A stretch of DNA of 64,000 bases from Candidatus Heimdallarchaeum aukensis (GCA_021513695.1 CP084166.1:1952001-2016000), one strand, 5' to 3'; positions 3,495-50,917 are shown, numbered from the stretch's first letter. Notes: generated from the letters alone by a model not told the origin. Numbers and translations are program-made.

Positions 3495-3815
3495 ATGGAA
3501 AAATTTCAACAATTCATTAATAAAACTCTTGTCTGTTCTAAATGTAATAGAAAATTAGACTTCAAAATCGATAGGAAACAACTTGAAGAATTAAGGAATA
3601 GCCAATTATTCAACTTTGTTATAATGCATGCCAACGATCATACTTTAGTAATTTCGGTTGATGGAAGGGGGGAAATTAGAAGATCAAGAATTGCAACCTT
3701 GAATGCTATTGAAGAAGAGAAAAAAAGTAATAATGCTTTTCAAGATATCCAAATTATTGAAGAAAGTAATAACTTACGAGAAGCTTTTGTAAACTGGTTT
3801 GAAAAAAAGAAGTAA
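3495..3815 (+). CDS. small hypothetical protein with N-terminal CxxC
   Basis: 106-aa ORF downstream of the GTPase with a purine-rich stretch (aaagggagaaaaaa) before the ATG. No family recognised. Confidence 0.35.
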   Translation: MEKFQQFINKTLVCSKCNRKLDFKIDRKQLEELRNSQLFNFVIMHANDHTLVISVDGRGEIRRSRIATLNAIEEEKKSNNAFQDIQIIEESNNLREAFVNWFEKKK

Positions 3816-3826
3816 AAAGAGAGAAA

Positions 3827-14678: not shown

Positions 14679-15737
14679 TTATTTTAAGAGTTTTAAAAGG
14701 ATTTTTTTTCTATTTTCAGTTTCTTCAGAAAAATATTCTGGAAATTTTTCTTTTATTTCGTTTTTCCATTCTTTTTTAGAGATAGAATTAGAAAATTTGA
14801 ATGGAAACAACTCATTAGCTATTTTAAACAGGCGTGCTTGCTCAATATAGCTAAAGAAATCTTTTTTGTTTGTTTTTGTCAAAGAAATGCCTATCTGGTG
14901 GTGGTTACCTTTTTTTCTTATTTTTGCTTTAATCCCAACTTCTGATAAGAGTTTTATCAGATACTTTTGTTCTTCAAACGTAAAGTTATTTGTACATAAG
15001 GATAAATCAGTACCTGAAAAATAACCGTCGTCAATATACCAAAATAATAAAACAGTTGGTGTTAGAGTAAGATCTTTTTTCAAAACCTTTTTTGTTTTAC
15101 CTAATTTATTTGAATACCAATTTTCCCAATAACTAAAAAATTCTACAGAGGAAGAAGTATCAAAGCCACAAGACCATTTTATTGATTCTGTATTACTCGG
15201 TTTAACAAATACCTTTAGTTTCGTAAAACTGCTAAATAGAGGAATAAGAGTTTTAATCCACTGAAACTCTAATATAGATTTATGGATTCTTAATGCAGCA
15301 GTATTTACTTTTGAGATTTTAGATACACATTTATTCCAATTAGAGATATCTGTGTTAGTTATAGCTTTTCCTTCATTTACTTTCTTTCTTAATTTTTCGG
15401 CTCTATCCAATAAACGGAGATATTCTGACAAAAGAGGTTGCTTCTTACTCGCTTGCAATTTTGTTTGCAATCGTAAATTTGCGTCTCCCAACATCATTCC
15501 TTCAATGATTTCTTGTATCTCTAAAGGGATAGGATGTGTAAATTCCTTGTTAATATGGTTTCTAGTTTTCGTCCAAAGTGAACCAGGAAAAGGTATTTTC
15601 AAACCCATTGAAGTTAAAAGAGGTTTTATAGTTCTTGGATCTTTATTCAATTCTTTTCCAATTACCTTTATTCCCTTTAATTCACCAACATACATTTTTA
15701 ACAGTTTTTTTTGTATTTCTGTTATTTCTAATGTCAT
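14679..15737 (-). CDS. free-standing LAGLIDADG-family homing-endonuclease-like protein
   Basis: Two LAGLIDADG-like motifs: GMMLGDANL at about aa 70 and LLFWYIDDGYFS at about aa 225. Not embedded in an intron or intein. Confidence 0.45.
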   Translation of the reverse strand: MTLEITEIQKKLLKMYVGELKGIKVIGKELNKDPRTIKPLLTSMGLKIPFPGSLWTKTRNHINKEFTHPIPLEIQEIIEGMMLGDANLRLQTKLQASKKQPLLSEYLRLLDRAEKLRKKVNEGKAITNTDISNWNKCVSKISKVNTAALRIHKSILEFQWIKTLIPLFSSFTKLKVFVKPSNTESIKWSCGFDTSSSVEFFSYWENWYSNKLGKTKKVLKKDLTLTPTVLLFWYIDDGYFSGTDLSLCTNNFTFEEQKYLIKLLSEVGIKAKIRKKGNHHQIGISLTKTNKKDFFSYIEQARLFKIANELFPFKFSNSISKKEWKNEIKEKFPEYFSEETENRKKILLKLLK

Positions 15738-19604: not shown

Positions 19605-22600
19605 CTATTGTTCAAGAAGAAAATCTGATAAATTAACAGATTTCTTTTTCTCTGTTTTTCTAATTTTACGCTTTGATTTTTTATCAGCTGATCCATCATC
19701 AGGTAGGAACATTGTTAAAATGTTTTGTTTTAGTACGTCTATCCTAGATCGCAAATATTCTGAAACTGAATATTTCGAAACTAAATAATTGATAATATTA
19801 AGATATTTGGTTACTGATTTTTCAAAAACAGTAAGATTTAGCTTATTTGCACCACATTTTGTACAATATCCGCCCAAAGGAATACGACGATAGGTAGTAT
19901 TACAATTTGTGCAACGTATTTTTTGGCTACCAAATCTACGCATATTACCTATAAGATCTGGCAGAAATTGTTTGAAAATTACTCTTGTTGCTACATCGTC
20001 AACATCAACTGCTCTAATCTTACTAGCTAGTTCTAATTGTGCATCCACTTTTTCTTTCATTGTAGCTAAACGAGTATAAAGAGAAGATTTTTCGCCTACG
20101 AAAATTGAGGAAGTCTCATGACTATAGGAAAAACCTTCATAGGCAGCTTTTGTGTTTAACCTATGACTTACAATGTCAATTAAAGGGAGAACCTTCTTTG
20201 CGGGTAATGATTTCAGTGTAGATTCATAAAAAGACAAAGGATAAGAGTTACCTGTATCAACGTTATGAGACTCATCATCAACCTCAAAGGGATCTATTGT
20301 AGAAACCAAAATTAGCGGGGCATCCATTTGACCGCCTCTAACTTCTGGTAAAAAGAATTTTGAAAAATTAAGAAAAGCATCAAGAGCTAGAAGAATACTA
20401 TCCTCATCTCCATCGCAGTTCATCGTAATGCAACTAGTTGTCTGGAAATTATGTAACATTGTGTCATTTCTTATTGTTTCAACTTCCAAACAATATGAAG
20501 CCTCTTCTTTTGCAATATTATTTATTTCAGCTATTTGGTCACATATAGTATTATGTGCTTCTTTAAGTTCATAATAGTGATTGTTGTATTTTATCCGTCT
20601 ATTTTCAGGAAAACCTTTTTTAATAAATTGTTTCAGTTTTTCTTTTTTATTTTGATTAATTAGATCTAGATGTTGCATTATCCAAAGGTCTGCTCCTCTA
20701 ATAGATATTTTGTGAACAACTGTCTTTTTAGGCTCTTTTCCCAATTCTTTATATTTTTCCAATATTTTTTTGCCAAAATGTCCTTCTGGAGAAGATACTC
20801 TAGATCTTACGAATACACCAATGGTTGAAAAGAGATAAGTTATATCCTTTAATAATTCATTTGAAACAGAATAGAATGATATTTCCCCTACATCTTTTGA
20901 GAGCGTTCCATCTCCATCTAGATAGGCGGAAATAAAAGCTAATTTATATTTAGTTGGTACTGTATAGAGAAAGTTTGGCAAACGTTTTCTATAAGCTCCT
21001 TTCCCCATATTCCATGCATATGCGAAAAGATAGGCTAATATTCTTCCAGAACAAATAACGTTTCTTTCTTCGCTGATATAAGGAGTAAGACCTAGAGTTC
21101 GTTTTATTATTTCCACCAAATATTTTCTCATTTTTTCGTCTGGGATAGAAAAATTAATCTGATAACAGTTCTTATTATCCCGAATATGTCCTTCAGAAAT
21201 GTAATAACCTAGAATTCTCATTAACTCATCATTAAAAGGAAAATAGGGAGAAATAGTAAAATCATCTCTAGCCATCCCCAATCTTGCATCTGAAGGGATC
21301 TCATTCCAGTCAAAAATTCCTTCTTTTTGCAAAAGTTCTAAGTGGGATAAGGGGATAGAATCAAACCAGTGATTAGAAAAGAAGTATGTAGAATGAGGTA
21401 TATCGATTCCTTTTGAAAGAATATAATTTAGAAGTATCTTAGTACATGAAGAAGAGTTAATATTGCTGCTTTTTTCTTGAGAAAGTTTATTGCAGAAATC
21501 GTTTAACTTACTTTTTATCCAATTTCGGGCTTTTCTAAGTCTTACTGTGTGTTTAAATTCAGTAAACTTCTTGCTGTCAGGTAAGTTTTTTGCCAATTCC
21601 TCTAAAACATTTACTACTTTGTTATGTTGAAACCCTAACTCTGGAATCTTTGTTTTAATTGCAATATATTCGCCTATTTGTAAATTTCTTGCTTTCACAT
21701 TTTCGAAATCATTTGTCAGTTCATTCAACACGAGCATATTGTGGTCAGGTGTTACTGTTATTTCATTTCCACTTTTGGTTTTTATTTGCAACCATCTTTC
21801 ACTTTTTCCCTTAATCCAATGCTTGATGGGTTGTAAAATAGAAGAAGAGTTTTTTTGATCTAGACTAATGACCTTCCATTCTTTATGAAGATTCTCAATT
21901 GCAAATGTCCCAAAATCATCTACCAGCTTACTCTTAGCTCCTGATTTTATCTCTTCTTCTACTAGTTCTCCAATACTTTTTACAATGACCTGTTTCTTAT
22001 TTTCGTCCCAAATAAGTAGTTGTTCAGTTGGAAATAAACAATTTCTTCTTTTTGCTGCATGCCAATAAGGATGAGCTAATATTACTTTAGCATCAGTAAA
22101 TCCTATTAACCTTCCAGCAATACCTGCTGAAGTATGAGGAGCTAAACCTATAATTAAATGACCAACTAGGTCATTAATTGTTTTTGCTTTGTAAAAGGGA
22201 GGAAGTCCATACAATCTTTCTAACAACTCATCGATAAAATGAGAGACTTTTAGGAGATATTTACCTCCTTCCTCATTAACAATCACATCTTGAATTTTTA
22301 ATTCTAGTAGCTGATCTTCATTTTCTAGTAAATTCCCATGAATATCGTGTGTATAACCTATAGAATGGAGTTTTGAAATTGAAACACCAATTTCTTTTGG
22401 CTTAAAATGCGTAATTACAGCATCAGTAGCATCAAAACGTATTGTTCCATCACGGTATACAAATACATCGTTTAAAGAACGTAATATCCCTTTTACTATA
22501 AATTCTGGTATACGATGTTTATTCATCAGTTTTTTAACAGCTTTTACATTTTTAGGTAAATCAGAGTTAAATTCTCTTGCAATTTTTCTAAATTCTTCGT

Positions 22601-24776
22601 TAATAGGAAAGGGTTTAGTTTTGTAACTAATTAGAGGTATCCCACACCTTTTACATTTATCGTCATTAGATTCTAACCCACATCTTGGACAAAATTTAAT
22701 GATTTCTGTTACTACATTACAACGTGAACATATGGATAAATGCGTAGTAGAACCACATACATGACATTTTCTTTGTACTAATTCGATCTCTATAACTTTT
22801 TTTTCACTCGCGGAAACAATATTTCTTTGATTACCTCCTGCTTCACCAATTGGAAAAAGTAGATGCACTGGAGGTTTCATCTTTCTACTTTTAGCTTTTT
22901 CTGGACGCCCCATTCTTGCACCAGTATAACAAGGACACTTATCTCTCACTTTAATATATTTGTAGGAGTTAATTATTTCTAAAACAGTTTTTGCTTTATT
23001 TTCCACCGGAAGTAAACTTCCATTTTTAAAACCTAAAGATATTAGTAGAGTTTGCGAATGTTCCCCAAATAAAATTTTTCCATCCCTTATAGAGTGAGGA
23101 ATGCATATTTCTTCCAAAATTGTTTTTATCTCTTTATCATAAGGTAACTCTAAATTTTCATCTTTATTATAGTATGATGATATATATTCACGTAACCGAA
23201 TATATGCAGAAATTGAAATATCATTCCAATGATATGTATATTCAGGATGAAGTGGAATATCAAGTAAAAGCGATAGTCCTATAGCTTCTTCAGCGGTTGG
23301 GATAATGTTCAAGGGGTCTTTTATGAACTTATCAAACTTTTGTTTTTTATTTTTAAAAAACTGATTTATCTCTACTTCAGAAAAATTCATTAACTGCTTC
23401 TCAAGTTCTTTTGCCCACCATTCTTCACAATATCCAGAAGGTACAAGATCATGGTTAAACTGGTTAAATTCACCTACACCATAAAGCATATCTCCAAGAA
23501 AAAGAATCTTTTCTATTTGATCTTTTAATTGAATACCTTCTTCATAGGAATTAACTTTACAAACATTACCGTTTTTTAGAAGCACAATAGGTGGATGTAT
23601 AGAATCCACAGGCATGACAATGGCTCCTTTTCCGGGTCTTTCTGTTCGCAAATGTGTTCCACAAACCAAAAAATCATTTGTGATTGCAAAAAGTGCTGGA
23701 TGTACACCCATTGCAGCTAATCCAGTAATTCTAGAACGCCCATATCTAATCCTAAAACCACCTTTCGCGGATGGATGACTAAAAACTGGCCTTCCACCAA
23801 TTACGTCTTGAATATAACCTGTATCAGGCTTAATAAACAAATTATCTTGCTCAATTTCATGTTTACTTGTACCTTTTTCTTCATCAGTTTCTCCAGAATT
23901 CTCAATATTCTGGCTTGAGTGTATTTGTATTAAATCGGAAAACCAGTCCCAACCCTTTAATTTATGTTTTGATACTCTTTTTTCAAGTTTTTTTACTCTA
24001 CCCACAATACCGTCATTAAAAACTAAACAAGCACCTCCTCTAAGTCTATTAGTTTCAATACGTTTCAAATCTCTATTTCCAGAAACTTCAACTTTCTCAG
24101 TAGGTTCTCCTGTGATTTCAATGGGAAGATTTCTTGCCGCAAATCGCTGCTCCTCTTTAGTTGTGGGAAGTTGTAAATGCATTACTTTGTTGTAAAGATC
24201 TATTTCCTCTACCGTTCGCTCTATTTCTCTCTCTGTAGGTTTATACCTATCAAGTTTTAATGTTCGTCGTATGTGATCAGCCAACAAAACACTCATACCC
24301 GCTGCCGTACCACCAGCAGAGCGTATAGGTCCAGCATAGTAAACAGCTAAGTAGTCGGATCCGTCATCATTTTGCTTAATTTTTACTTTCGCTATACCTT
24401 CAAGAGGAGCTGCAGTGATGCTTTCAGTTATTATTGCCAATGATGTACGGAGTGCTTGCTCGGCGAGCTCAATTTTTTCAGAAGAAAAAAATTTACCTTC
24501 AGCTATTTCTTCTGCAATTTTAAATGCCACGCTTTCGCGAGAGAGACCTTGTCTTTCAAGTTCTCTAATTCTCTTCCCAACCCCTTTAGGTCCAATTAAT
24601 CCTTCAACTCGATCAGCAATATCTTTAGCGATAGGTATTTCAACTTCAGAAGAAGGATCATAACCTTTTTTTCTCGCCTGTTTAGCAATCCTATAAGTTT
24701 GTTCTATCAATGAATTAATTTCCTCAAAATATCCCCTAACATTTACTGAAATTAACTCGTCATCTGATATTTCCAT
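19605..24776 (-). CDS. DNA polymerase II (PolD) large subunit DP2, intein-containing
   Basis: DP2 N-terminus, Zn-ribbon clusters, and the RRN/CDGDED catalytic motif split by a 541-aa insertion. Confidence 0.95.
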   Translation of the reverse strand: MEISDDELISVNVRGYFEEINSLIEQTYRIAKQARKKGYDPSSEVEIPIAKDIADRVEGLIGPKGVGKRIRELERQGLSRESVAFKIAEEIAEGKFFSSEKIELAEQALRTSLAIITESITAAPLEGIAKVKIKQNDDGSDYLAVYYAGPIRSAGGTAAGMSVLLADHIRRTLKLDRYKPTEREIERTVEEIDLYNKVMHLQLPTTKEEQRFAARNLPIEITGEPTEKVEVSGNRDLKRIETNRLRGGACLVFNDGIVGRVKKLEKRVSKHKLKGWDWFSDLIQIHSSQNIENSGETDEEKGTSKHEIEQDNLFIKPDTGYIQDVIGGRPVFSHPSAKGGFRIRYGRSRITGLAAMGVHPALFAITNDFLVCGTHLRTERPGKGAIVMPVDSIHPPIVLLKNGNVCKVNSYEEGIQLKDQIEKILFLGDMLYGVGEFNQFNHDLVPSGYCEEWWAKELEKQLMNFSEVEINQFFKNKKQKFDKFIKDPLNIIPTAEEAIGLSLLLDIPLHPEYTYHWNDISISAYIRLREYISSYYNKDENLELPYDKEIKTILEEICIPHSIRDGKILFGEHSQTLLISLGFKNGSLLPVENKAKTVLEIINSYKYIKVRDKCPCYTGARMGRPEKAKSRKMKPPVHLLFPIGEAGGNQRNIVSASEKKVIEIELVQRKCHVCGSTTHLSICSRCNVVTEIIKFCPRCGLESNDDKCKRCGIPLISYKTKPFPINEEFRKIAREFNSDLPKNVKAVKKLMNKHRIPEFIVKGILRSLNDVFVYRDGTIRFDATDAVITHFKPKEIGVSISKLHSIGYTHDIHGNLLENEDQLLELKIQDVIVNEEGGKYLLKVSHFIDELLERLYGLPPFYKAKTINDLVGHLIIGLAPHTSAGIAGRLIGFTDAKVILAHPYWHAAKRRNCLFPTEQLLIWDENKKQVIVKSIGELVEEEIKSGAKSKLVDDFGTFAIENLHKEWKVISLDQKNSSSILQPIKHWIKGKSERWLQIKTKSGNEITVTPDHNMLVLNELTNDFENVKARNLQIGEYIAIKTKIPELGFQHNKVVNVLEELAKNLPDSKKFTEFKHTVRLRKARNWIKSKLNDFCNKLSQEKSSNINSSSCTKILLNYILSKGIDIPHSTYFFSNHWFDSIPLSHLELLQKEGIFDWNEIPSDARLGMARDDFTISPYFPFNDELMRILGYYISEGHIRDNKNCYQINFSIPDEKMRKYLVEIIKRTLGLTPYISEERNVICSGRILAYLFAYAWNMGKGAYRKRLPNFLYTVPTKYKLAFISAYLDGDGTLSKDVGEISFYSVSNELLKDITYLFSTIGVFVRSRVSSPEGHFGKKILEKYKELGKEPKKTVVHKISIRGADLWIMQHLDLINQNKKEKLKQFIKKGFPENRRIKYNNHYYELKEAHNTICDQIAEINNIAKEEASYCLEVETIRNDTMLHNFQTTSCITMNCDGDEDSILLALDAFLNFSKFFLPEVRGGQMDAPLILVSTIDPFEVDDESHNVDTGNSYPLSFYESTLKSLPAKKVLPLIDIVSHRLNTKAAYEGFSYSHETSSIFVGEKSSLYTRLATMKEKVDAQLELASKIRAVDVDDVATRVIFKQFLPDLIGNMRRFGSQKIRCTNCNTTYRRIPLGGYCTKCGANKLNLTVFEKSVTKYLNIINYLVSKYSVSEYLRSRIDVLKQNILTMFLPDDGSADKKSKRKIRKTEKKKSVNLSDFLLEQ
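20418..22040 (-). mobile_element. intein with LAGLIDADG homing-endonuclease domain, inserted in DP2 between RRN and CDGDED
   Basis: The insertion starts with Cys (CLFPTE...) and ends ...SCITMN before extein +1 Cys. The internal LAGLIDADG motifs are ILGYYISEGH and FISAYLDGDG. I checked the codons at both junctions against the DNA. Confidence 0.8.
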
Positions 24777-24882
24777 TACAAATAATTAATTGGTAAATGG
24801 CTTTTAGTTTTTTTCATATTCGTGAGTTAAAATATTTTACTAAATAGACGAACTATTTTTTAATATTATAAATAAACAGGTA

Positions 24883-24902
24883 TTTCCCCTTTCACTGGAA
24901 AT
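24883..24902 (-). promoter_or_regulatory. origin recognition box (ORB)-like element, inverted copy
   Basis: The reverse complement is ATTTCCAGTGAAAGGGGAAA, a CCAGTGAAA core followed by a G4 run. Confidence 0.55.
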
Positions 24903-24977
24903 TTTATTGTTATATTCTAATTCAACTTTTGTTGTGAATGGTTGTGAACATGTGAATAAAGAATCAGACTAATTCAT

Positions 24978-24998
24978 CTTCCAGTGGAAATAAAGGGG
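24978..24998 (+). promoter_or_regulatory. origin recognition box (ORB) element
   Basis: CTTCCAGTGGAAATAAAGGGG has the canonical archaeal ORB dyad core TCCAGTGGAAA followed by a G-string. Confidence 0.6.
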
Positions 24999-25291
24999 TT
25001 AGTTAAGAATATATTTAATTATTTAATAAAATGAAGTAGTAAAATAAATCACATGTACATGCCATCTAGCAAGTAATTAAAGATTTTTTTTGTTGTGAAC
25101 AGCGGTGAATGTTTTAAACTCAAGAGTTGTGAAACAAAATAAAGACATTCTAAAGTATTCTGTCGGTTATATCTGTTCACTTATCTTCAAATCATTGTGA
25201 ATTTTGAAAACAACGTATCTGCTAGGTATTACGTTTGCAGTTCTCATAAAAAACCAATAAAGAATCAACAAAAAATCAAAAAAAAAGAAAA

Positions 25292-25726
25292 TCATGCATT
25301 AATTTTCTCAGCTTTATATTTTTCTAATATCTTGGCTATTCTTTCTGCAATTGGCCCTGTACCTTTTACTCCTTCCTCTGAAACTGTGAATCTATCTAAC
25401 ACTTGTATGATTCCTGCTTCTTCTATAATTTTCACATTTTGTGGTTGAAACATAGCTGATAATTCCTTTGCAAGACCAGTAAGATCAAAGGGTTCTTCTG
25501 CCAAAGTTATTTCGGAAATACTCTTCCCTGCAATAAAAACTCTAAATATTTTCACATTATCACTTTCAGCATCACCCAACACAAGATTCAAGGATTGATC
25601 TTGGATTCCACGTAATATTCCAGTATAGACTCTACCTGATTCTAAAATAATTTTTACACGTTTGTTCAAAAGTGCACTCAATTCTAACAGAAATTCTCGA
25701 TTTGGATTACTTGGCATATCTATCAA
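25292..25726 (-). CDS. Sm-like archaeal protein with C-terminal extension
   Basis: Sm1-like segment RVKIILESGRVYTGILRGIQDQSLNLVLGDAES. The 144-aa length suggests an SmAP3-like two-domain protein. Confidence 0.6.
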   Translation of the reverse strand: MIDMPSNPNREFLLELSALLNKRVKIILESGRVYTGILRGIQDQSLNLVLGDAESDNVKIFRVFIAGKSISEITLAEEPFDLTGLAKELSAMFQPQNVKIIEEAGIIQVLDRFTVSEEGVKGTGPIAERIAKILEKYKAEKINA

Positions 25727-25780
25727 GGTTCAATTTTTCTATTATTAAAAAAATGTTGTTATTTTTGAGCATTTAGTAAT

Positions 25781-27784
25781 TTAGAAATTAATCTCAGACA
25801 CGGTATTTTTTATTTTTTCCTTTGTATTTCGATGTGTTATTGTGTAAATAGGACACACATCAAAACATTTCTCACATTGGACGCAAGTACTAGGGTCAAC
25901 AATCAAACCTTTGTTATTAAAAGATAATGAATAGGTTTTACATTCATCAAAGCACAGTTTACACTCTAAACATTCTTCAGTTCGTAACACAGAAAAAACA
26001 AATTTTTCAACAAAATTTTTCAATTTCTTTTCATTATTTTTTCCCAATCTCAATTTAAAAGTCCCATCAGGATAGAGAAATGCTGTAAAATCATTTTTCT
26101 TTACCTGTATGAAATCTAAACTATTATTATTAACAACTTTTCCTACCATTGAAAGTGTTTTTTGTAGATTTTCAAATTTAGTAATCCTCGAAAAAGAACC
26201 AATTATAGTAGTTTGTTGTACTCTACATTCTGATTCTTCTACATCAATATCATCCAAATCAATAGCCATTTTTCTTTTTTCAATTATAAAGAGATCTTTT
26301 TTATCAAGTGTCAAAATATTTCTAATTTTTTGAGGGATGTGCTTAAAACGCCATAAGCCTTTAGTAATATACTCTTTCGGTAATTTCTTTTTATTTCTCC
26401 ATTTTTCTAATTCTCGTGATAATTTCTTATACAATCGCCTATTATTGTTTTTCAATAAATCAAATTGAGCAAGATTTGATGAAGGACAAACCCAACAGCC
26501 TATGCGTTCATATTGTTTATCATATAAAGGATTGTAAGGTAAGTTATTTAAGAAAATATATAACCAAACAACTAAAGCAGTCCAATTTTGAATAGGAGAG
26601 ACATTTATTTGATTAGGAATATAATGATTTTGCCAGATATCGGCAGTAGCTCGAGCATAAGATTCATAACGTCGTTGACCAACTAAACTTATACATTTTC
26701 CTTCAGGGTAATTCTGGAGTATTAACTCTCTAATAGGAGCTAGCTTCGCAAATTTACAACAATATCTATAATCCCTTCCAGGAGGACCAAATTTCTGAAA
26801 AGCATTCCAAAATGTTTTAGTTTTAACTTTTTTTACTTTTAAATTGTCTTTAAAATTCATTTTTTTACTTAACCTTTTTACATAAGAAACTGTTTGAGGA
26901 AATTCTATTCCAGTATCTACAAAAAAGATTTTCAAGTCTTCCTCTGGTAAAGCTTTTTGAGCTAAGTCTAAAGTAACCAAACTATCCTTTCCGCCACTAA
27001 AACTTACAGCCACAGGTAGCTTTAACTCCTCCTTTATTCTTCTGATAAATTGAACAGCTTCTTTAGTAATATCATTAATTATACTTGAATTTGCTTCAAT
27101 TACTTCATCCCATGTCGTTTTCTTTATTTTTCTTAGAGTTCTATTTTTTATGGTGACATAATTTTTTGCATAAGTCCCTCTTGCTTGTTTTTTTCTTTCT
27201 ACTTCATTAATTTTGGCTATGCCCCCAGCAATTACGTTTTTATTCTTATCCAAAATTGCAATGTAATTATCTTTTCTTATTCGACGATCTGCGTCGATAA
27301 TTCCAGGAATAAGCGCATTTGAGCCATTTAAAATGTTATTAATTGCACCATCATCAACAATTACCCAATTTTTTCTAATCTCTTTTTCTATCAATAAAAG
27401 TCCATAAGCATTTAATTTAATGGTCCAATGCCTATAAACTAGATCATATCGCCTTATTCCAATGATATTACCATAATAAACTATTTCATCCATCTGATCC
27501 TCTGAACCCACATGGTTGAGCAGTAATACGTCATCTAAAGAAAATATCTTTTTTCTTACTCCAAAATTCCGTTTTATTAGCTTTAATATTTCCTTTATAT
27601 CCTGTTTTGTAGCTGGGCGAACATCATAGGGAGGAGTTATTGGGATTTTATTTAATTTCTTCCCGCATTTAGGACAAATATCAGACTTAACAATTGGTAG
27701 AGAACAATCACTACAAAAATAGAGAATATTTTTTCCTAAATAGGGAATATTCTTCTTTTTCTTTCGTTTTTTCTTTTCTTGCAT
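25781..27784 (-). CDS. PUA-domain PP-loop ATP pyrophosphatase (PAPS-reductase-like) with C-terminal 2x[4Fe-4S] ferredoxin domain
   Basis: N-terminal Zn ribbon CSDCS...CPKCG, a PP-loop VAVSFSGGKDS, conserved Cys pairs (CCKF, CWVCP), and C-terminal CLECKLCFDEC...CVQCEKCFDVCP. Confidence 0.6.
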   Translation of the reverse strand: MQEKKKRKKKKNIPYLGKNILYFCSDCSLPIVKSDICPKCGKKLNKIPITPPYDVRPATKQDIKEILKLIKRNFGVRKKIFSLDDVLLLNHVGSEDQMDEIVYYGNIIGIRRYDLVYRHWTIKLNAYGLLLIEKEIRKNWVIVDDGAINNILNGSNALIPGIIDADRRIRKDNYIAILDKNKNVIAGGIAKINEVERKKQARGTYAKNYVTIKNRTLRKIKKTTWDEVIEANSSIINDITKEAVQFIRRIKEELKLPVAVSFSGGKDSLVTLDLAQKALPEEDLKIFFVDTGIEFPQTVSYVKRLSKKMNFKDNLKVKKVKTKTFWNAFQKFGPPGRDYRYCCKFAKLAPIRELILQNYPEGKCISLVGQRRYESYARATADIWQNHYIPNQINVSPIQNWTALVVWLYIFLNNLPYNPLYDKQYERIGCWVCPSSNLAQFDLLKNNNRRLYKKLSRELEKWRNKKKLPKEYITKGLWRFKHIPQKIRNILTLDKKDLFIIEKRKMAIDLDDIDVEESECRVQQTTIIGSFSRITKFENLQKTLSMVGKVVNNNSLDFIQVKKNDFTAFLYPDGTFKLRLGKNNEKKLKNFVEKFVFSVLRTEECLECKLCFDECKTYSLSFNNKGLIVDPSTCVQCEKCFDVCPIYTITHRNTKEKIKNTVSEINF

Positions 27785-27788
27785 TGCA

Positions 27789-28808
27789 TTATACCTGTTT
27801 TAGTAATCTCATCAACACCCTAGGTAAGGAATTATAACTTTTTATTTCGGCAAATTTTCCTCGTCCTAATCTTGCAAGATCTTTGCATAACCTAGTTCCC
27901 CAATCATGTTTTGATGGAAGTGCAATAACATGTAATTTAGGATAATACATTAAGTATTTTCGGGGGTCTCCTCCTCTGTTGAATGCACCATCTGTTATTA
28001 AAATACCAAATTTATTCTTTCTTTTTATTTTCTCTAATTCAAGACCACCATATTTCAATCCTTCAGCAATATTTGTATAACCAGCACTCTCACTTTCTAA
28101 TATTCTATTTACTAATTCATCGGTTCTTACTCTTTCTTTCATTCTTTTAATCACAGTTGCTTTTGTATTGAACAATACTACACTGAAATTATCGCGTGCT
28201 AGGTTGTAGGCCATAACTGCAACAGCAAGAGCAGCAGTTGTAAATTTTTCACCATATAAAGAACCTGAAGTATCAAAAATCAATACGGCTGTTTTTAACC
28301 TCTCTTTTCTTTCTAAAGCTACAATATCTTCCCTATGCAATATTCTACTTCGATTTTGTAAGAATCGTTCTAGGGTTTCATCAATATCAAATTCATCTAA
28401 ACCAGGTTCAAACTCTGTTTGTTCAAAAACCTCTCCACGAATACCTTGACCAGTTATACCGTAAGCTGTTTTCAAGATTACTTGCCTAGCCAATCTCCTG
28501 AAAATAGGCCTCATTTTATCATCTATTGCTGTTCTTAGCATGAAAAACAATTCTGGAGCACTACTATCTCCTTTTGCAGCTCTTCGAGCTAGAAGGGTGT
28601 AGCCTTTTTTTGAGTTCAAAGCTTCTGCTACAGCAAATTTATTTGATATAGCTAATCCTTGAATAGCAGGCATATTGTTTACATCAATAGCTAATTCGGT
28701 CTGTTTTTTTATCTCATAGAAACTCATTCCATCTGAAAGACTAGAATATACAGATGGATTCCTTTTACCAGAGACTATTTCTGCTTCAAGTAGTTTGTTT
28801 TTATCCAT
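27789..28808 (-). CDS. von Willebrand factor A (vWA) domain protein
   Basis: MIDAS-like DTSGS (VLIFDTSGSL), a downstream ITDG, and a gene order typical of MoxR partners. Confidence 0.65.
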   Translation of the reverse strand: MDKNKLLEAEIVSGKRNPSVYSSLSDGMSFYEIKKQTELAIDVNNMPAIQGLAISNKFAVAEALNSKKGYTLLARRAAKGDSSAPELFFMLRTAIDDKMRPIFRRLARQVILKTAYGITGQGIRGEVFEQTEFEPGLDEFDIDETLERFLQNRSRILHREDIVALERKERLKTAVLIFDTSGSLYGEKFTTAALAVAVMAYNLARDNFSVVLFNTKATVIKRMKERVRTDELVNRILESESAGYTNIAEGLKYGGLELEKIKRKNKFGILITDGAFNRGGDPRKYLMYYPKLHVIALPSKHDWGTRLCKDLARLGRGKFAEIKSYNSLPRVLMRLLKQV

Positions 28809-28864
28809 TCGACCTCTGTAAACGTATGGCTTTTGAAGATCAAAGCTTATGTCCCCCCCCTCTG

Positions 28865-29761
28865 TTAGAAAAAATCCTCTTCTTCAAACACCTTGTTTAC
28901 AATTTCTTTTATTACATCTTCTACTTGGCTTTCTACTCCATCCTCTAATTCTATCTTTGTAGCTAAAGCCATAATGCTGCTATCAATCCAAGAATCAATG
29001 TCATTAGGATCTAAAAATCGGATTATAGAAGCTAAATCTATTGCTCCACGGATTGAGGAACCTCTCCTTAGATCAGGCCAATCCCTTGTTTTTCTAACAA
29101 TTCTTACAGCAATTTTTACAATTTTATCGTCTTTTATTCCTGTTTTTACACGAACAATATTTTCTTCTTCTTCTTCAGATTGATAATTTAAACGAACCCA
29201 AACAAATCTATCTCTTAAAGCCTCACTTAATGGTGTTGTGGCTACAAGTTCTGCTGGATTCATAGCACTTATTATAAAGAAACCATCTTTAGCTTTCACT
29301 TCTCCTAATTTAGGCAAAATGATTGTACCCTCATCCATTGCAGCTAATAAAACATTTTGAGTACCTTCAGGCATACGGTTAAGTTCATTAAGAAAAAGTA
29401 TAGCTCCATCTTGCATAGCTTTTGTTAATGCTCCTGTGACAAAAGATTCCCAGCTATATCCTTTTTCTATTACCATAGGGGGATCAAAGTGCCCCACTAA
29501 TTTTGAACTACTATAACGCTCATCTCCGTCCACTCTTTCAATATTTTGTGAGAAGTAGGAAGCAATAGCATGAGCTAATGTAGTTTTTCCTACACCTACA
29601 TCTCCTTCTAATAAAATATGTCTTTCAGCTAGTTTGGCAGCTAAGCATTTTCTGAGTTCTCTTTCACGACCCACAATATTATATTTATCTTGTATCTCGC
29701 TAATCATCTCATCAATAGTCTTCTCTTGTTTCGCAACGCTTTTTGCAGTCATTTTAACCAC
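28865..29761 (-). CDS. MoxR-like AAA+ ATPase
   Basis: Walker A LLEGDVGVGKTTLA, Walker B ILFLNELNR, and a MoxR-family length of about 300 aa. Confidence 0.8.
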   Translation of the reverse strand: MVKMTAKSVAKQEKTIDEMISEIQDKYNIVGRERELRKCLAAKLAERHILLEGDVGVGKTTLAHAIASYFSQNIERVDGDERYSSSKLVGHFDPPMVIEKGYSWESFVTGALTKAMQDGAILFLNELNRMPEGTQNVLLAAMDEGTIILPKLGEVKAKDGFFIISAMNPAELVATTPLSEALRDRFVWVRLNYQSEEEEENIVRVKTGIKDDKIVKIAVRIVRKTRDWPDLRRGSSIRGAIDLASIIRFLDPNDIDSWIDSSIMALATKIELEDGVESQVEDVIKEIVNKVFEEEDFF

Positions 29762-30055
29762 TTATATTTGTAAACAACTATAATTTTAGTATACTCCACT
29801 TTGTGTTTTATATAGTTTTAGATTCAGCTTATTTCTTACACATATTTTTGCAGAGTATAATTGTTACTGCTGTTTGATATGTGTTTTATATAGTTTTAGA
29901 TAATGTTCAAGTTAAAAGTAATAAAAGGCTAAATACCCAAAGTGATATACAAAAAAGATTGCTACCTGATTAAAAATAGATAATAGTTGTTACTGCCATC
30001 AGAATTGATTAAAAAAAAATTAAAGATCAAGGCTTCTTAACGGAAATAATTTTTT

Positions 30056-30079
30056 GATAGTGATAGTGATAGTGATAGG
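30056..30079. repeat. hexanucleotide microsatellite (GATAGT)x4, followed by an (AAT)3 run
   Basis: Direct tandem repeat visible in the sequence. It underlies a spurious low-complexity ORF (YHYHYH). Confidence 0.7.
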
Positions 30080-30281
30080 AATAATAATAACGATAGCAAT
30101 TGCATAATAATATCGAAACAGAAAATGTTAAAACGTAAGTGGAGAGCCAAAGCGGAAAAATGAGAAATCTTACCACACCACATAATATTATGTGGTAAGA
30201 TATTTCAATCAAGCAAAGTGGGTTTCCAGCCGAATAACAACAAAAATCAACTAAAAATGAGCTGAAAGACAAAATAAAACT

Positions 30282-30728
30282 TTATTTAGAAATTAGATCA
30301 GGAATTGAATGAATGTCTAGTTCACCATAAGCATTCAACAGCTTTTTAGTTACAGAATAATAACGTTGTGAAACATTTCCACGTCTTGTCAATAAACCTT
30401 CATCAGCCATTCTTGATAAGGTTGTACTTACAGTACTTAATCGTATGCCTTCATTAAAGATCTTTGAGTATAGTATTTCTATGTCATTAGATGTAAACCA
30501 ATCATTTTCAGGATAATGATTTCTCACAATAGAAGCTATTCTTTCCTTTTTTGAAGCACTTAGAAGCTCATTCTGGGTATTTATTTTGGTTACTTCCTCT
30601 TCGTCCTCGGTTATTTCACCTTTTCCTGTAACTAAAGAAATAATAGTTCTAATGGTCTCGGTGCTAGATCCCTCTGGTACGCTAATAATAGTACCATCAG
30701 GAAGTTTAATTGTAATCTCTTTACCCAT
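30282..30728 (-). CDS. putative transcription regulator: N-terminal beta-grasp/TGS-like domain plus C-terminal winged helix
   Basis: ITIKLPDGTIISVPEG at the N-terminus and LSTVSTTLSRMADEGLLTRRG (wHTH-like) at the C-terminus. Confidence 0.45.
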   Translation of the reverse strand: MGKEITIKLPDGTIISVPEGSSTETIRTIISLVTGKGEITEDEEEVTKINTQNELLSASKKERIASIVRNHYPENDWFTSNDIEILYSKIFNEGIRLSTVSTTLSRMADEGLLTRRGNVSQRYYSVTKKLLNAYGELDIHSIPDLISK

Positions 30729-31242
30729 TAGAACTCACTTAGTAATTCTATTATTATATATCGCATATTCATTTATAAAACTACATATTACCAATAGTAC
30801 TTTGGTGAGGTATTACAATAAAAGGTATTCTTTTTTTCTAGCCAGTAATATCACACTTAGAAAGGGTATAATCACTTTTTTTAAAAAAAAGTCAGTAATT
30901 TATAAACGATTTTAAAAGATGTAAAGATACCCGTTTATTTCTATTCGAGAATATATAATTTATTTAAGAGTGAAAAATATGATTTTCAAAAAGTTTATAT
31001 ATATAGAAGTTTGCAAAACTATGGGAGGGTATGTACTTTTAGTATATTAACTAATAGAGAAATTAGGTATGCAGTAAGTAAAGTTCCAGTTGACGTGTAC
31101 GGGAGTCTGTGCTTCTTTAAAAGACATTTTTATAGATTTGTACACATTTGCTTTAAAACCATATTTCATCATAGTTTTTTTTCGATAAGCAACTTCTTTG
31201 CTCTTCCAATAAGTTTAATAAAAAAAATCAACATTTTCGCTT

Positions 31243-31521
31243 ATGGTTACAAGAGTTCATTTTTGTCAGAAATGTGGACGCCCTATTAAAAGATCTGGAT
31301 ATTGTGAAGATTGTGCCTCTGAATTAAACGTAGGAATAAAAAATCGTTGTTCATTTTGTGGAAAAAGTAATTTAATGTCTCCTTTAGCTTATAACTTAAA
31401 AACTAAACATGTTTATTGTAAGACTTGTTTAGATCTTTTTGTAAAAGGACTTCGTTCTAATCATTTTACAGAACATGAAATTAAGAAAATAATTGATAAA
31501 GATTTTATCCCTGTTAGGTAG
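31243..31521 (+). CDS. zinc-ribbon protein (4x CxxC)
   Basis: CQKC, CEDC, CSFC and CKTC pairs. 92 aa. Confidence 0.45.
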   Translation: MVTRVHFCQKCGRPIKRSGYCEDCASELNVGIKNRCSFCGKSNLMSPLAYNLKTKHVYCKTCLDLFVKGLRSNHFTEHEIKKIIDKDFIPVR

Positions 31522-33312
31522 TTATTGTTTTTTTATTATTTCATTTACACCAATTATTATTCCTAAATATGTTATTAGATAATTCAAAAAGCACAATAAT
31601 GAAATTTTCATACCTAACAATTTAGTAATAGTAATTTCTACAATGAAGTATTTGATAATAACTAAACCAAGTAAAAAGCTTAATACAAGTCCTGGAATAG
31701 TATTTAAACTCATATCATTTAACATACAATTCCGAAGTACTCTTTTTTTAGTTCCTATCTTATACATTAGTTTTATGTCGTCAGAATTTTCACTTACCAA
31801 TAGGATTCCAAAAGCTAGAAATCTTGTTAAAGTTATTATAAAAAGAATACCATAAATTGAGTTTACTAAATTAATTACATTCCACAGTCCTTTTATCTTT
31901 TTTTCAACGATTTCTGTGATATTGGATACTCGGTAATTACTTTCCTCAGCACTAGTATATATTTTACTAATTATATCACTTTTCACAGATTTAATAAGAA
32001 TACAATTTCCATTGCTTGTTAACAAATTTTCTCTTAACTTTCTCATAGGAATATATATTGTATACCCATTAGCAAAATTTTCATTAACAATTCCTGTTAC
32101 TCTATATTTCTCTTTTAGTCCTCCTATTCGTAAAAATTCTAAAGTATAATCATCTAACAACATTTTGTTTACTGATTGACTTATTACTATCTCATTTTTC
32201 TCCTTATTTGGCTTTACACCTTCAATTAATCGATCCAAGAATATTGTTTCGTTTATATATCCAATAATAGTAATATTTAGACTTCTTTCTTTACCTACAG
32301 TTTTATATTGTTCTAAATTTACTGTATCTGGTATCGTGACATTAATTTCACTAACTTTTCTTTTATTCAGAAATATTATGTCATAAACAACATTATTTTC
32401 TTTAAGGTTATTTATAAAATCAGAGTTTAAACTGCTTTTCTCTGTGAAAAAATCATTATAATTATGTTCACTATATCCTATATTATTTTCAAAGAAATTC
32501 GCTACATTTTCTTTACTAATTAGATATTTATATTTCCCAAATTGCTCTGTGTAACTGTACACAAATGTATTTCCAATATTTATTGTAGAAAAAAGAAAAA
32601 TTACTGATGCTGTTGAAATTAGAAAAATGAAAAAGAAAGTTGATCTTATCTCTCCTGAACGAAGAAATGCTTTTAATCCAAACTTTCTAGCAGGCTTTAT
32701 CTTTTTGAATAATTCGTCAAATTCAAAAATGCTTTTATAATTTCTTAATCCTTTTGAAGAAATTTCTAAATTATTTTCATTTAATATTCTAAGTATCTCA
32801 TTATGTGTTACTAAATAATGTAATAAAACTATGCTACCACAAATTAAGAATGCAGGTAAAAATTTTATCTGATTTCCATATGAACCCATTTTAAAAATGT
32901 ATAATATGATTAGAAGAATTATCGCACTTAAAAATAGTCCTATTACAAAAGAAATTACTCCAACAAGTATATGGTAAAACAGTATATAACTATAGATCCA
33001 TTTAGTTTTTGATCCTACATTTTTCATTAATGCAATATCTTTTATTTGGTGGTTGAATATCTGTCTAACTGTTTTCCTTGTTACTATAATCGCTAAAAAT
33101 AATGACAAAATTGTAGATACAATGCTAAAAATCAGGTAGCTTTGTTGTATTCTGTACGAAACATTTCCTTCGAAAATTGCTTTGGTTATTGAAATAGAAT
33201 TGATACTTATTCCAACTAAAATGTAGGATAAAATTAAATTTGCATATTGGGTTAATGAAGTTGTAAAAGATCTTCTAAAATTAATCCAAGAGTATTTTAC
33301 CTGACCTATCAT
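31522..33312 (-). CDS. ABC transporter permease, FtsX/MacB-like
   Basis: N-terminal TM helix, a large extracytoplasmic domain and C-terminal TM bundle. It overlaps the ATPase gene by 4 nt. Confidence 0.65.
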   Translation of the reverse strand: MIGQVKYSWINFRRSFTTSLTQYANLILSYILVGISINSISITKAIFEGNVSYRIQQSYLIFSIVSTILSLFLAIIVTRKTVRQIFNHQIKDIALMKNVGSKTKWIYSYILFYHILVGVISFVIGLFLSAIILLIILYIFKMGSYGNQIKFLPAFLICGSIVLLHYLVTHNEILRILNENNLEISSKGLRNYKSIFEFDELFKKIKPARKFGLKAFLRSGEIRSTFFFIFLISTASVIFLFSTINIGNTFVYSYTEQFGKYKYLISKENVANFFENNIGYSEHNYNDFFTEKSSLNSDFINNLKENNVVYDIIFLNKRKVSEINVTIPDTVNLEQYKTVGKERSLNITIIGYINETIFLDRLIEGVKPNKEKNEIVISQSVNKMLLDDYTLEFLRIGGLKEKYRVTGIVNENFANGYTIYIPMRKLRENLLTSNGNCILIKSVKSDIISKIYTSAEESNYRVSNITEIVEKKIKGLWNVINLVNSIYGILFIITLTRFLAFGILLVSENSDDIKLMYKIGTKKRVLRNCMLNDMSLNTIPGLVLSFLLGLVIIKYFIVEITITKLLGMKISLLCFLNYLITYLGIIIGVNEIIKKQ

Positions 33313-34172
33313 TTTGTTTTTTCATTCCTTTTTTCATAATTTTCTTTATCCTCATAAATAGCCTGCTCAAAAAACTCTTCAAAAATATCATATCTTTCCA
33401 ATTCTTCTTCTATTTCTATTTTTTCCCATTTTTCTATGCTCTTAATTGGTCTATAAATTATTTTATCTTCTTTTTTCCTTTCAGGAAACTCAATTTCTAA
33501 AGAAACTTTCTTTTTCTCAATTTTATATATCTTTGATGCAATATTTCTAAGTTTAGGATCATGCGATGAAATTACAATTGTAATATCTGTTTTTTGGAAA
33601 ATATCTTTAATAATTTCACAAATTTGATCTCTTGTCTCATCATCTAAGTTACCAGTAGGTTCGTCCAACACTAAAATATGTGGGTTGTTAATTAGAGCTC
33701 TAATTATTCCTAATCTCTTTTTTTCTCCACCACTTAGTTGTTCAGGAAAACTTTTTCTCCTGTTTTCTAAACCAAATTTTTTTAACCAATTTTCAATTCT
33801 TTTTTCATCTGAATTTTCTATTCCTCCCAACATTTCTTGAAAAAATAATAAATTTTCTTCGGCTGTTAATGTTGAAATGAGATTATTATCTTGAAAAACA
33901 ATACCAAAGTTTTCTGCACGAAAATCATTTTTCTCTTGTTTATTCATTTGATCATAATATAATCCACAAATTTCAACATCTCCTTCAGTTGGTTCAATTA
34001 ATCCTGTTATTATGTTTAATAATGTTGTTTTTCCGCTTCCACTAGGTCCGTAGAATAGAACGATTTCATCTCTTTTGATTTCTAAATTTACATTTTCAAA
34101 AACAACTAGATCTTCCCAAAATAATTGGAATATTTTTTTAACGTCAGTTAATTTGATAATTACATCGCTCAT
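33309..34172 (-). CDS. ABC transporter ATP-binding protein (MacB/LolD-like)
   Basis: Walker A GPSGSGKTT, signature LSGGEKKR, Walker B LVLDEPT. Confidence 0.85.
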   Translation of the reverse strand: MSDVIIKLTDVKKIFQLFWEDLVVFENVNLEIKRDEIVLFYGPSGSGKTTLLNIITGLIEPTEGDVEICGLYYDQMNKQEKNDFRAENFGIVFQDNNLISTLTAEENLLFFQEMLGGIENSDEKRIENWLKKFGLENRRKSFPEQLSGGEKKRLGIIRALINNPHILVLDEPTGNLDDETRDQICEIIKDIFQKTDITIVISSHDPKLRNIASKIYKIEKKKVSLEIEFPERKKEDKIIYRPIKSIEKWEKIEIEEELERYDIFEEFFEQAIYEDKENYEKRNEKTK

Positions 34173-34240: not shown

Positions 34241-34594
34241 TTATTTCTTAACAAGGAGGTTAGATATTTTTTTTATTGTTTGGTCTATCTTTCTTTTTCT
34301 TTCCATTGCTTCCTTAAGTAATATACCTGTTTTTATTTCTTCTTCGATGTTTTCTGGAATTGTTTTTCCTAAATAAGTTCTATACTTGTAATCTGGTTCT
34401 TTACGTAAATAATAATATGGCCCGTGGTAGTAATTTTTGTTTGTTTGGCATTTGCAATTTTTTTTTCCACATTTTATATACTTCTTAGATATAAAACCTA
34501 TAATATATGGTTTTCTTGATAGTGTAGCAATTTTTTTCTCTAACTCTCTACTTTCCTCAATTAACTGCTCTAAAATATTATCAATCGGTGACAT
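34241..34594 (-). CDS. hypothetical Zn-binding protein
   Basis: CGKKNCKC...HGPYYY motif. No family recognised. Confidence 0.4.
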   Translation of the reverse strand: MSPIDNILEQLIEESRELEKKIATLSRKPYIIGFISKKYIKCGKKNCKCQTNKNYYHGPYYYLRKEPDYKYRTYLGKTIPENIEEEIKTGILLKEAMERKRKIDQTIKKISNLLVKK

Positions 34595-34710: not shown

Positions 34711-35025
34711 ATGAATGAAGAAAAAGGATTGCTAAAAAGAGAAATAAAAGAAAAAACTAGTTTTGATGGTATTGTAGTAGGAAGAAGAAGACTATATGTT
34801 TACTCAGAAAATTATAGAAAAAAAATAAGCATAGATGATCTAATACTCAATATATTATCTGAAAAAGGTCCTTTAACACGAGACGAATTGGTAGAACTAA
34901 CACATATTCCCAGGACAACACTTTATGATAATCTAGCTCGCTTAATAGATGAAGGTTATGTCAAAAAAGAATCAGTTCCAAGAAAAACTAGAGGAAGACC
35001 TAAAATTCTATTCAAACTTGCATAA
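34711..35025 (+). CDS. small winged-helix DNA-binding protein
   Basis: LTRDELVELTHIPRTTLYDNLARLIDEGYV followed by RKTRGRPK. It lies directly upstream of orc1/cdc6. Confidence 0.5.
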   Translation: MNEEKGLLKREIKEKTSFDGIVVGRRRLYVYSENYRKKISIDDLILNILSEKGPLTRDELVELTHIPRTTLYDNLARLIDEGYVKKESVPRKTRGRPKILFKLA

Positions 35026-35191
35026 AATCTTGATATTATTGATTAATATAATATATTCACAATAGTATTCACTATTTACTAATTTGTTCGATTCGTTAAT
35101 TATCGACAAAGTTAAAGTTGTAATGTTGTAACAAACTAAGAAGTTCATAAAAGTGTATAAACTTTAGTTATTAATTTAAGGAGAAAAAAGA

Positions 35192-38536: not shown

Positions 38537-38622
38537 TGGCTCAGCACTCAAGATCCTCATCACTAATCAGTCAAGGGCTAGACACATCATAGCCACATTA
38601 AATAGTTTATGAGAGTATTTTT

Positions 38623-50889: not shown

Positions 50890-50917
50890 ATAGGCGAAAA
50901 CTGATATCTAAAGTAAT

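Follow-up and report, generated by a model that had tools for sequence, protein, structure and literature searches.

The window, by which we mean the whole stretch of 64 kb of DNA that was analysed, has a GC content of about 30%. According to the ORF map, an intergenic gap of 515 bp (24777-25291) lies between the start of the gene for the PolD large subunit DP2 and the stop codon of an LSm gene, and we consider this gap a candidate oriC. The LSm gene to the right encodes 144 aa on the minus strand, so that its stop codon faces the gap (ORF map and Pfam). Further to the right, a DUF6788 gene and a small winged-helix (wHTH) gene precede the gene for the initiator Orc1/Cdc6. The coordinates of all features are collected in Table 1.

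The N-terminus of DP2 is 91% identical between the window and Candidatus Heimdallarchaeum endolithica PR6, and both are collinear over 22 kb at 88-92% nucleotide identity. Thus, the window comes from a sister species of PR6 within the Asgard genus Heimdallarchaeum. The gap itself is collinear with PR6, where the counterpart of the origin recognition box (ORB) is found at about 2,161,518-2,161,537 of CP084167.1. Since the baseline identity is 88-92%, a comparison of the window with PR6 alone is weak.

Table 1. Features of the candidate origin and of the neighbouring genes; positions are counted from the first nucleotide of the window.
Feature	Position	Strand	Remarks
PolD large subunit DP2, with intein	19605-24776	-	1723 aa; Pfam; transcribed away from the element
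Whole element	24777-25291		also contains the DP2 promoter (left) and LSm terminator T-runs (right)
Stretch of 78 bp missing from PR6	24818-24895		pairwise alignment; includes the CCCC run 24886-24889
Mini-ORB dyad TTTCACTGGAAAT	24890-24902		differs from the 12-bp dyad at two positions; 89 bp left of the ORB
Three TTGTGAAY-type boxes TTGTGAAT, TTGTGAAC, ATGTGAAT	24932-24957	+	offsets to the ORB -46, -36, -28
Full ORB TTCCAGTGGAAA-TAAA-GGGG-TT	24979-25000	+	dyad 24979-24990, G-string 24995-24998; points to the orc1 side
Candidate unwinding element	25003-25090		AT-rich, poorly conserved; on the G-string side; core 25008-25047 with 92.5% AT
Right-hand box array	25093-25202	+	cores kept in PR6 while flanks vary
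Right-array box TTGTGAAC	25093-25100
Right-array box GGTGAAT	25104-25110
Right-array box TTGTGAAA	25127-25134
Right-array box TGTTCAC	25174-25180		minus-strand box
Right-array box TTGTGAAT	25195-25202
Conserved edge motif GGTATTAC	25225-25232	+	GTATTAC aligns in the window, PR6, L094, L146, L147 and L148
DUF6788 gene	34241-34594	-	Pfam; divergent from wHTH-orc1
Small winged-helix (wHTH) gene	34711-35025	+	104 aa; Pfam; precedes orc1
Orc1/Cdc6 initiator, Orc1-1 class	35192-36409	+	Pfam Cdc6_C, Cdc6_lid, AAA; 10.2 kb from the ORB

The DP2 intein (about 20465-21980) carries a LAGLIDADG homing endonuclease, with matches to Intein_splicing, LAGLIDADG_3 and Hint. A free-standing LAGLIDADG_2 ORF is located at 14679-15737.

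The gap contains one perfect ORB on the plus strand, CTTCCAGTGGAAATAAAGGGG at 24978-24998, which occurs only once in the window. The exact 11-mer TCCAGTGGAAA has likewise a single occurrence in 64 kb, and the rarity check that had been proposed for the motif CCAGTGGAAA-N0-5-GGGG gave one match in the 64-kb window compared to none in 100 shuffles. An ORB is recognised as a TTCC...GGAA dyad followed by a G-string, which is the structure of TTCCAGTGGAAATAAAGGGG at 24979-24998. Furthermore, TTCCAGTGGAAAT and AGGGGT are invariant in all seven aligned elements (13 and 6 invariant ORB positions). The preliminary description of this locus, whose quoted sequences were all found at the positions given there, had named this copy a canonical ORB; as it is correctly placed, perfect, unique in the window and invariant among relatives, we keep this designation.

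The exact 20-mer TTCCAGTGGAAATAAAGGGG is present in at least 120 metagenome contigs. Among the matches listed, an orc1/cdc6 homologue is present on 43 of the stretches fetched, about a dozen of which code for DP2 as well. The distance between the ORB and the orc1 start has a median of 334 bp in these listed matches and is at most 500 bp in 35 of the 43. In the same set, orc1 is transcribed away from the ORB in all 43 cases, and the G-string points toward orc1 in 32, as it does in the window. The Pyrococcus ORB, to which Cdc6 binds both in vitro and in vivo, has the same dyad (PMC1904270). Since the 20-mer is found next to orc1 across archaea and shares its dyad with the Cdc6-bound Pyrococcus ORB, we conclude from these sequence comparisons that the ORB of the window is a genuine pan-archaeal initiator site and not a look-alike. 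Characterised archaeal origins usually carry two or more full ORBs; the single full ORB in the window element counts against a reading as oriC.

The ORB had first been described as one half of an inverted pair. The second site, whose reverse complement (24883-24902) is ATTTCCAGTGAAAGGGGAAA, has two mismatches to the 12-bp dyad. When up to two mismatches are allowed, the dyad has 11 matches on both strands of the window, and four of these 11 are accounted for by the ORB and the second site, which are both palindromic. The second dyad aligns with TTYC-N4-GAAA in PR6, L094, L146, L147 and L148 (for instance TTCCAATGGAAA in L146), so a conserved second dyad is indeed present. A second full ORB is not: no G-run was found beside the mini-ORB in the aligned relatives, and in PR6, where 78 bp are missing, the CCCC run is gone and TTTCATTGGAAAT remains. 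The second copy thus looked like a full inverted ORB because of a CCCC run (24886-24889) that lies within the stretch absent from PR6. In summary, the element combines a single full ORB with a conserved mini-ORB dyad at a distance of 89 bp, and the AT-rich stretch is not located between them. The alignments show that what is conserved is apparently the single ORB and not an inverted pair.

The 75-bp spacer between both sites (24903-24977) had been proposed as an AT-rich unwinding element. Its AT content of 74.7% is that of average intergenic DNA (pooled mean 73.8%), and the spacer belongs to the more stable DNA of the element, so that we do not retain this assignment. Stability peaks just left of the ORB, and the spacer holds three conserved boxes. 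Based on computed nearest-neighbour stability, the least stable 40-mer is 25008-25047, immediately past the G-string. Its position relative to the ORB is similar in other genomes (+29 in the window, +39 in PR6, +45 in both L094 and L148). The region 25003-25090 also has the lowest identity between the window and PR6 within the element; such low conservation combined with a high AT content fits a constraint on composition rather than on sequence. We thus place the candidate unwinding element at 25008-25047, on the other side of the ORB from the spacer.

The boxes in the spacer belong to a larger set. At least five copies of TTGTGAA had been reported at 24930-25200, and this was borne out: five of the 23 copies in the window are located within 24932-25201, all on the plus strand. 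The hexamer TGTGAA occurs six times in 300 bp compared to a background of 0.77 per kb, and the next-best cluster in the window has three, so that the density is well beyond chance. The three left boxes are identical in PR6, and the box GTTGTGAAC aligns at about -33 in L094, L146, L147 and L148. On the right side, boxes of the relatives are found at +105, +125 and +149. Across 47 sites, the consensus is T-TGTGAA-Y, without TTCC. Both ORBs and mini-ORBs are defined by perfectly conserved 'TTCC' and 'GAA' core motifs (PMC1904270). Since the TTCC...GAA core is absent from the TTGTGAAY boxes, which are a conserved motif in themselves, we regard them as a separate motif and not as degenerate half-ORBs or mini-ORBs, as had been suggested. 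Some boxes change their orientation between genera while the position is kept; for instance, TGTTCACA of the relatives corresponds to TGTGAACA of the window. A near-palindromic protein site can readily undergo such flips, whereas they are incompatible with an RNA gene.

Boxes of this kind also accompany ORBs elsewhere. At least two TGTGAA within 300 bp on either side of the ORB were found in 18 of the 120 ORB contigs listed, compared to about four that are expected from a simple equal-base estimate. In the literature that we searched, we found no description of TGTGAA boxes in archaeal origins. It is conceivable, albeit doubtful, that the TTGTGAAY boxes are a second class of origin element that is bound by a factor other than the ORB-bound initiator. 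A candidate for this factor is the 104-aa winged-helix protein encoded beside orc1 in Heimdallarchaeaceae, which has a weak PDB match (2d1h_A, E = 2e-4). We detected no homologue of this protein in the thaumarchaeal-type loci described below; nor did we find any similarity to the small ORF upstream of the thaumarchaeal orc1, which is itself a sub-threshold winged-helix match. A more widely conserved box factor thus fits at least as well. If the boxes are indeed a second class, origins of this type would have boxes at fixed distances around a single ORB. Since similar boxes bracket an identical ORB in Thaumarchaeota, this two-motif grammar of origins would then be ancient and common to Asgard and TACK archaea.

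To compare the element across Heimdallarchaeaceae, we used a search for Orc1 orthologues, which yielded many Heimdallarchaeaceae proteins with 72-90% identity, and took the DNA around several of them. The comparison set comprises L094, L146, L147, L148 and L149 (Orc1 72-78% identical), of which L094 entered via the scan for the 20-mer. Each of these five loci contains one perfect ORB (consensus TTCCAGTGGAAATRRAGGGGTY) in a gap of 600-830 bp, 1.1-3.5 kb upstream of orc1. The gap of the window is orthologous to these orc1-proximal gaps. L094, L146, L147 and L148 have a common gene order (M42 peptidase, a gap of 600-660 bp, DUF6788, winged-helix gene, orc1); L149 has a gap of 827 bp, with LSm and TGT located between it and DUF6788. 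The element thus adjoins the DUF6788-wHTH-orc1 cluster directly in four of the five relatives, with the DUF6788 and wHTH genes between orc1 and the element. In all five, the G-string faces orc1 and the ORB has 6-9 TGTGAA hexamers around it, compared to 1-3 in the next-best 400 bp of these loci. The offsets of the hexamers (ORB start = 0) are near-identical in L094, L146, L147 and L148, at -122, -110, -42, -33, +33, +105 and +149, and the -110 box is followed by a mini-ORB-like dyad.

In the multiple alignment, the identity of the elements across genera is only 43-60%, which is close to that of unrelated AT-rich DNA. Despite this low identity, several blocks align with the window and PR6, namely the ORB, the TTYC-N4-GAAA dyad, GTTGTGAAC before the ORB, CAGTGAAC/CGGTGAAT near +125 and GTATTAC near +250. 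From the alignment of these blocks, we therefore conclude that the window element is the orthologue of the orc1-adjacent element, with an architecture that is independent of the flanking genes. The flanking genes vary by genus (M42 peptidase, ABC transporter or DP2; DUF6788 or LSm), and thus the conservation is not explained by the promoter of any single gene. Two further loci were included. Of the contigs fetched via Orc1, L143 encodes the most similar Orc1 (90%), and here the dyad is kept and the G-string is degraded (TTCCAGTGGAAATTAAGGTA). For L145, the element falls outside the fetched stretch. The wHTH gene and orc1 are adjacent in every Heimdallarchaeaceae locus fetched (window, L094, L143 and L145-L149). 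They are joined by a divergent DUF6788 gene in all loci but L145, whose corresponding 103-aa gene has no Pfam match.

In the window and in PR6, about 9.3 kb of genes (25292-34172) separate the element from DUF6788-wHTH-orc1. These are, in order, LSm, a PAPS-reductase/PUA protein, VWA, a MoxR-type ATPase, a 148-aa protein and an ABC transporter. The ORB is 10.2 kb away from orc1 in both genomes, in agreement with the distance of about 10 kb reported before. In L143, whose DNA is about 70% identical, the block from LSm to VWA is inverted compared to the window, and the element follows the 3' end of LSm. A contig from YT1_002 (L147 and L008) contains the element, orc1 and DP2 together, with DP2 about 15 kb from the ORB. 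The adjacency of DP2 and the element was found in the window and PR6 only; in the other Heimdall genomes, no ORB was found upstream of DP2, where there is a short gap and a different neighbour gene. Judging from these gene orders, the neighbourhood is a rearrangement hot spot and the DP2 adjacency is genus-specific. Since the orthologous element of L094 and L146-L149 is found at a distance of 1.1-3.5 kb from the start of orc1, the ORB-less orc1 is, on the same grounds, a secondary state. Adjacency to orc1/cdc6 is typical of archaeal ORB-type origins and not obligatory. The preliminary description had emphasized the link to DP2 and the 'unusual' orc1 without an ORB; adjacency and distance are both real, and they appear as by-products of a genus-specific rearrangement rather than as design. 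Beside the element of L143, we noticed a 34-aa ORF (4446-4550; region 3534-5028) that by eye may be a remnant of the M42 peptidase.

A linkage of origins and PolD genes is known from Thermococcales, where the ORB-type origin is linked to PolD genes and a Cdc6-bound ORB cluster is located inside dp1 (PMC1904270). The ORB-PolD linkage is also present in thaumarchaeal-type loci found with the 20-mer. As a separate observation, ORB-like sites with G-strings, for instance TTCCACAGGAAATAAAGGGG, are located about 2.7-3 kb upstream of DP2 in L012, L015, L016 and L020, which are MAGs of Undinarchaeota, Woesearchaeota and Methanosarcinales; this suggests that oriC-PolD linkage is widespread.

The best PDB matches of the Orc1 protein are Cdc6-1 of S. 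solfataricus (2qby_A, 1.6e-109) and ORC1 of A. pernix (2v1u_A, 4.7e-102), the two proteins for which there are crystal structures with origin DNA (an oriC2 mini-ORB site for the former, an ORB for the latter). The segments RRVSD(L/I)INELD and GRYG are conserved in the Orc1 alignment and, by position, seem to correspond to recognition helix and wing. The product of 35192-36409 is thus the presumed ORB binder and belongs to the ORB-binding Orc1-1/ORC1 class. Sulfolobus Orc1-1, when bound to ATP, attaches to origin elements as a monomer and recruits MCM (PMC12993045). We found no ORB in the orc1 promoter. Instead, CGACAAAGTTAAA is located at 35104-35116, about 80 bp upstream of the orc1 ATG, and is kept in all relatives (CGACAAAGTTAWA); it is probably the BRE/TATA promoter of orc1. 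A pair of GTGAA at 35056 and 35068 upstream of orc1 was considered as a sign of regulation by the box factor and was rejected, as the pair is not conserved and the relatives share CGACAAAGTTAAA instead. The elements of L094 and L146-L148 contain, at about +85, a reverse-complement-like version of it, TTTTTGTCGT, which is absent from the window.

With the same ORB and TGTGAA-box element beside the orc1 cluster in four of five relatives and two genes away from it in the fifth, the proposal of a candidate oriC that is built on a canonical ORB is strongly supported. The gap element is very probably an Orc1-binding origin element, and we consider it likely, with somewhat less confidence, that the 515-bp gap is an active chromosomal replication origin of Heimdallarchaeum, or one of its origins. 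From the features described above, we infer Orc1 binding, a melting site, MCM loading, a function of the boxes and firing in vivo, in a mechanism that follows the Sulfolobus Orc1-1 model (PMC12993045). The Orc1-1-type initiator encoded at 35192-36409 would bind the single full ORB (24979-24998), with its winged helix contacting the TTCCAGTGGAAA dyad and its AAA+ domain contacting the G-string. It might also bind the mini-ORB dyad 89 bp to the left, more weakly or cooperatively. The 92%-AT stretch at 25008-25047 past the G-string would then melt, and MCM would be loaded there. The TTGTGAAY boxes, about eight on both sides of the ORB, may be sites for a further factor or extra contacts of the initiator that organise the complex. 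As to its history, the ancestral element would have been located beside DUF6788-wHTH-orc1, and rearrangements in Heimdallarchaeum would have inserted about 9.3 kb and brought DP2 alongside.

We found no signal of a skew switch at 25 kb based on GC3 and AT3 skew of 51 genes in 64 kb, a test of low power, and the weak skew signals elsewhere in the window do not survive multiple testing. The raw cumulative skew in the window tracks the gene strand.

Instead of an active origin, the element could be a relic or dormant one, that is, an orthologue of the ancestral orc1-adjacent origin that still binds Orc1 but, since its separation from orc1, has stopped firing or is not the principal origin, with replication starting elsewhere or by recombination. 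The distance of 10.2 kb between the ORB and orc1, the decayed G-string in L143, the presence of one full ORB only and the lack of a skew signal in the low-power test of the 64-kb window are all compatible with this. In addition, some archaea replicate independently of origins (PMC12993045; PMC5663688), and ORB-type origins are dispensable or unused in some archaea (PMC5663688; PMC12993045). A decaying element would, however, be expected to lose its blocks, whereas the window element retains all blocks of the relatives with the ancestral arrangement, and its ORB, boxes and AT-rich block are intact, with few or no differences from PR6. We therefore regard a relic as rather unlikely. It is less probable still that the gap is an Orc1-dependent transcriptional control region, in which the ORB and boxes regulate their neighbours (here DP2) and do not mark a start of replication. 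The mini-ORB falls within the promoter region of DP2, about 110-125 bp before its start codon, and Orc1 paralogues are described as transcription regulators in Sulfolobales (PMC9738581; PMC12490963). Yet the architecture is kept beside entirely different genes in other genera, where DP2 has another upstream neighbour and no ORB, and the orc1 promoter has its own conserved motif, again without an ORB. As the form of the element is kept beside different genes and orc1 has its own motif, a regulatory region of DP2 or orc1 is a poor explanation.

The gap could also harbour the gene of a non-coding RNA or a different cis-element, such as a centromere-like segregation array, with no more than an ORB-like word in it; of all the readings considered, we find this one the most improbable. 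Its appeal lies in the block 25093-25233, which is about 88% identical to PR6, and in the short-box arrays. Such arrays are also typical of partition sites. The search of Rfam 15 gave no match beyond noise even at E<=10 (best 22.7 bits compared to a gathering score of 50, E = 0.99), so that a non-coding RNA was rejected as a candidate. Folding of 25085-25250 as RNA was no better than that of shuffled sequences for either strand (z = +0.20 and -1.26). Furthermore, boxes that flip their orientation between genera at a constant position are not RNA-like, and the ORB is invariant in relatives and unique in the window. Genes for small proteins were rejected as well: the gap contains only ORFs of 21-43 aa and an 83-aa ORF antisense to LSm, and PR6 has indels.

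The active origin that we favour belongs to the known family of ORB-type origins; what is unusual is the layout with a single ORB and the positionally conserved TTGTGAAY boxes. The best-described relative is the oriC of Pyrococcus and other Thermococcales, which has ORB1 and ORB2 together with 13-bp mini-ORBs and adjoins cdc6-dp1-dp2 (PMC1904270). On the other strand, ORB1 of P. furiosus reads TTCCAGTGGAAAT...GGGGGG and thus has the same dyad as the window. Both systems combine full ORBs, mini-ORB dyads and AT-rich DNA with a linkage to PolD genes and a single Orc1/Cdc6. However, the two 34-bp ORBs of Pyrococcus form an inverted repeat and are accompanied by numerous mini-ORBs, with a second cluster located in dp1, whereas the window has one full ORB and one mini-ORB, with orc1 10 kb away. 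The spacer between the dyad and the G-run also differs (4 nt in the window compared to about 8 in Pyrococcus), and TTGTGAAY boxes are not described for Pyrococcus. The oriC1 of Sulfolobus and of Aeropyrum pernix resemble the window in having a dyad with a G-string as ORB, and the initiator of the window is most similar to their Orc1-1/ORC1; these origins have several ORB repeats (PMC1904270), whereas a single full ORB is conserved in the Heimdall family. In Methanothermobacter thermautotrophicus, the origin consists of arrays of 13-bp mini-ORBs with cooperative binding of Cdc6-1, as cited in PMC1904270. Many short repeats around the initiation region are thus common to both; the repeat of the window, TTGTGAAY, however, lacks the TTCC...GAA core.

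A likeness to the window was also found in the Thaumarchaeota-type loci L104, L141 and L082, which have an identical ORB 20-mer with TGTGAA boxes at -26 and +59 and a TGTGAAagTGTGAACATGTGAg cluster that resembles TGTGAAtggtTGTGAACATGTGAAt of the window. The Orc1 of L141 is 90% identical to a Thaumarchaeota protein. These loci differ from the window in their two tandem ORBs and in having orc1 near the ORB (about 0.7 kb in L141). With L089, they form a group of thaumarchaeal-type loci adjacent to orc1, in which the identical 20-mer is often tandem and is bracketed by TGTGAA.

We found no replication origin of any Asgard archaeon in the searchable literature. As far as this literature shows, the element is thus the first concrete candidate for an oriC in an Asgard archaeon. 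Asgard archaea are the archaeal lineage closest to eukaryotes, and the locus bears on how origins went from sequence-defined to loosely defined. The Heimdall initiator of the Orc1-1 class seems still to pair with the pan-archaeal ORB. Furthermore, the locus gives Heimdallarchaeum, a genus with closed genomes that is available in enrichment culture, a concrete origin that can be tested. As a practical marker, it could be used for orienting Heimdall genome assemblies and for coverage-based estimates of growth rates.

Lastly, we note several features outside the gap. Two other long gaps, 30729-31521 (793 bp) and 29762-30281 (520 bp), contain only doubtful ORFs and no ORB; in L143, an ORB-like TTCAAGTGGAAATCATAGGG that is absent from the window is found in the gap matching 30729-31240. 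The LSU rRNA gene (50916-54339) has 3,424 nt compared to a model of 2,987 positions, which points to insertions or expansion segments. There is no SSU rRNA gene within the 64-kb window, and in L145 a 16S gene is located just upstream of the orc1 cluster, so that the rRNA genes appear to be unlinked. In the window, orc1 is followed by an EF-2/EF-G-like paralogue of 664 aa (36542-38536), which is kept near orc1 in all relatives. Directly after this gene, a C/D-box sRNA (snoPyro_CD, 46.7 bits) is located on the minus strand at 38538-38594.
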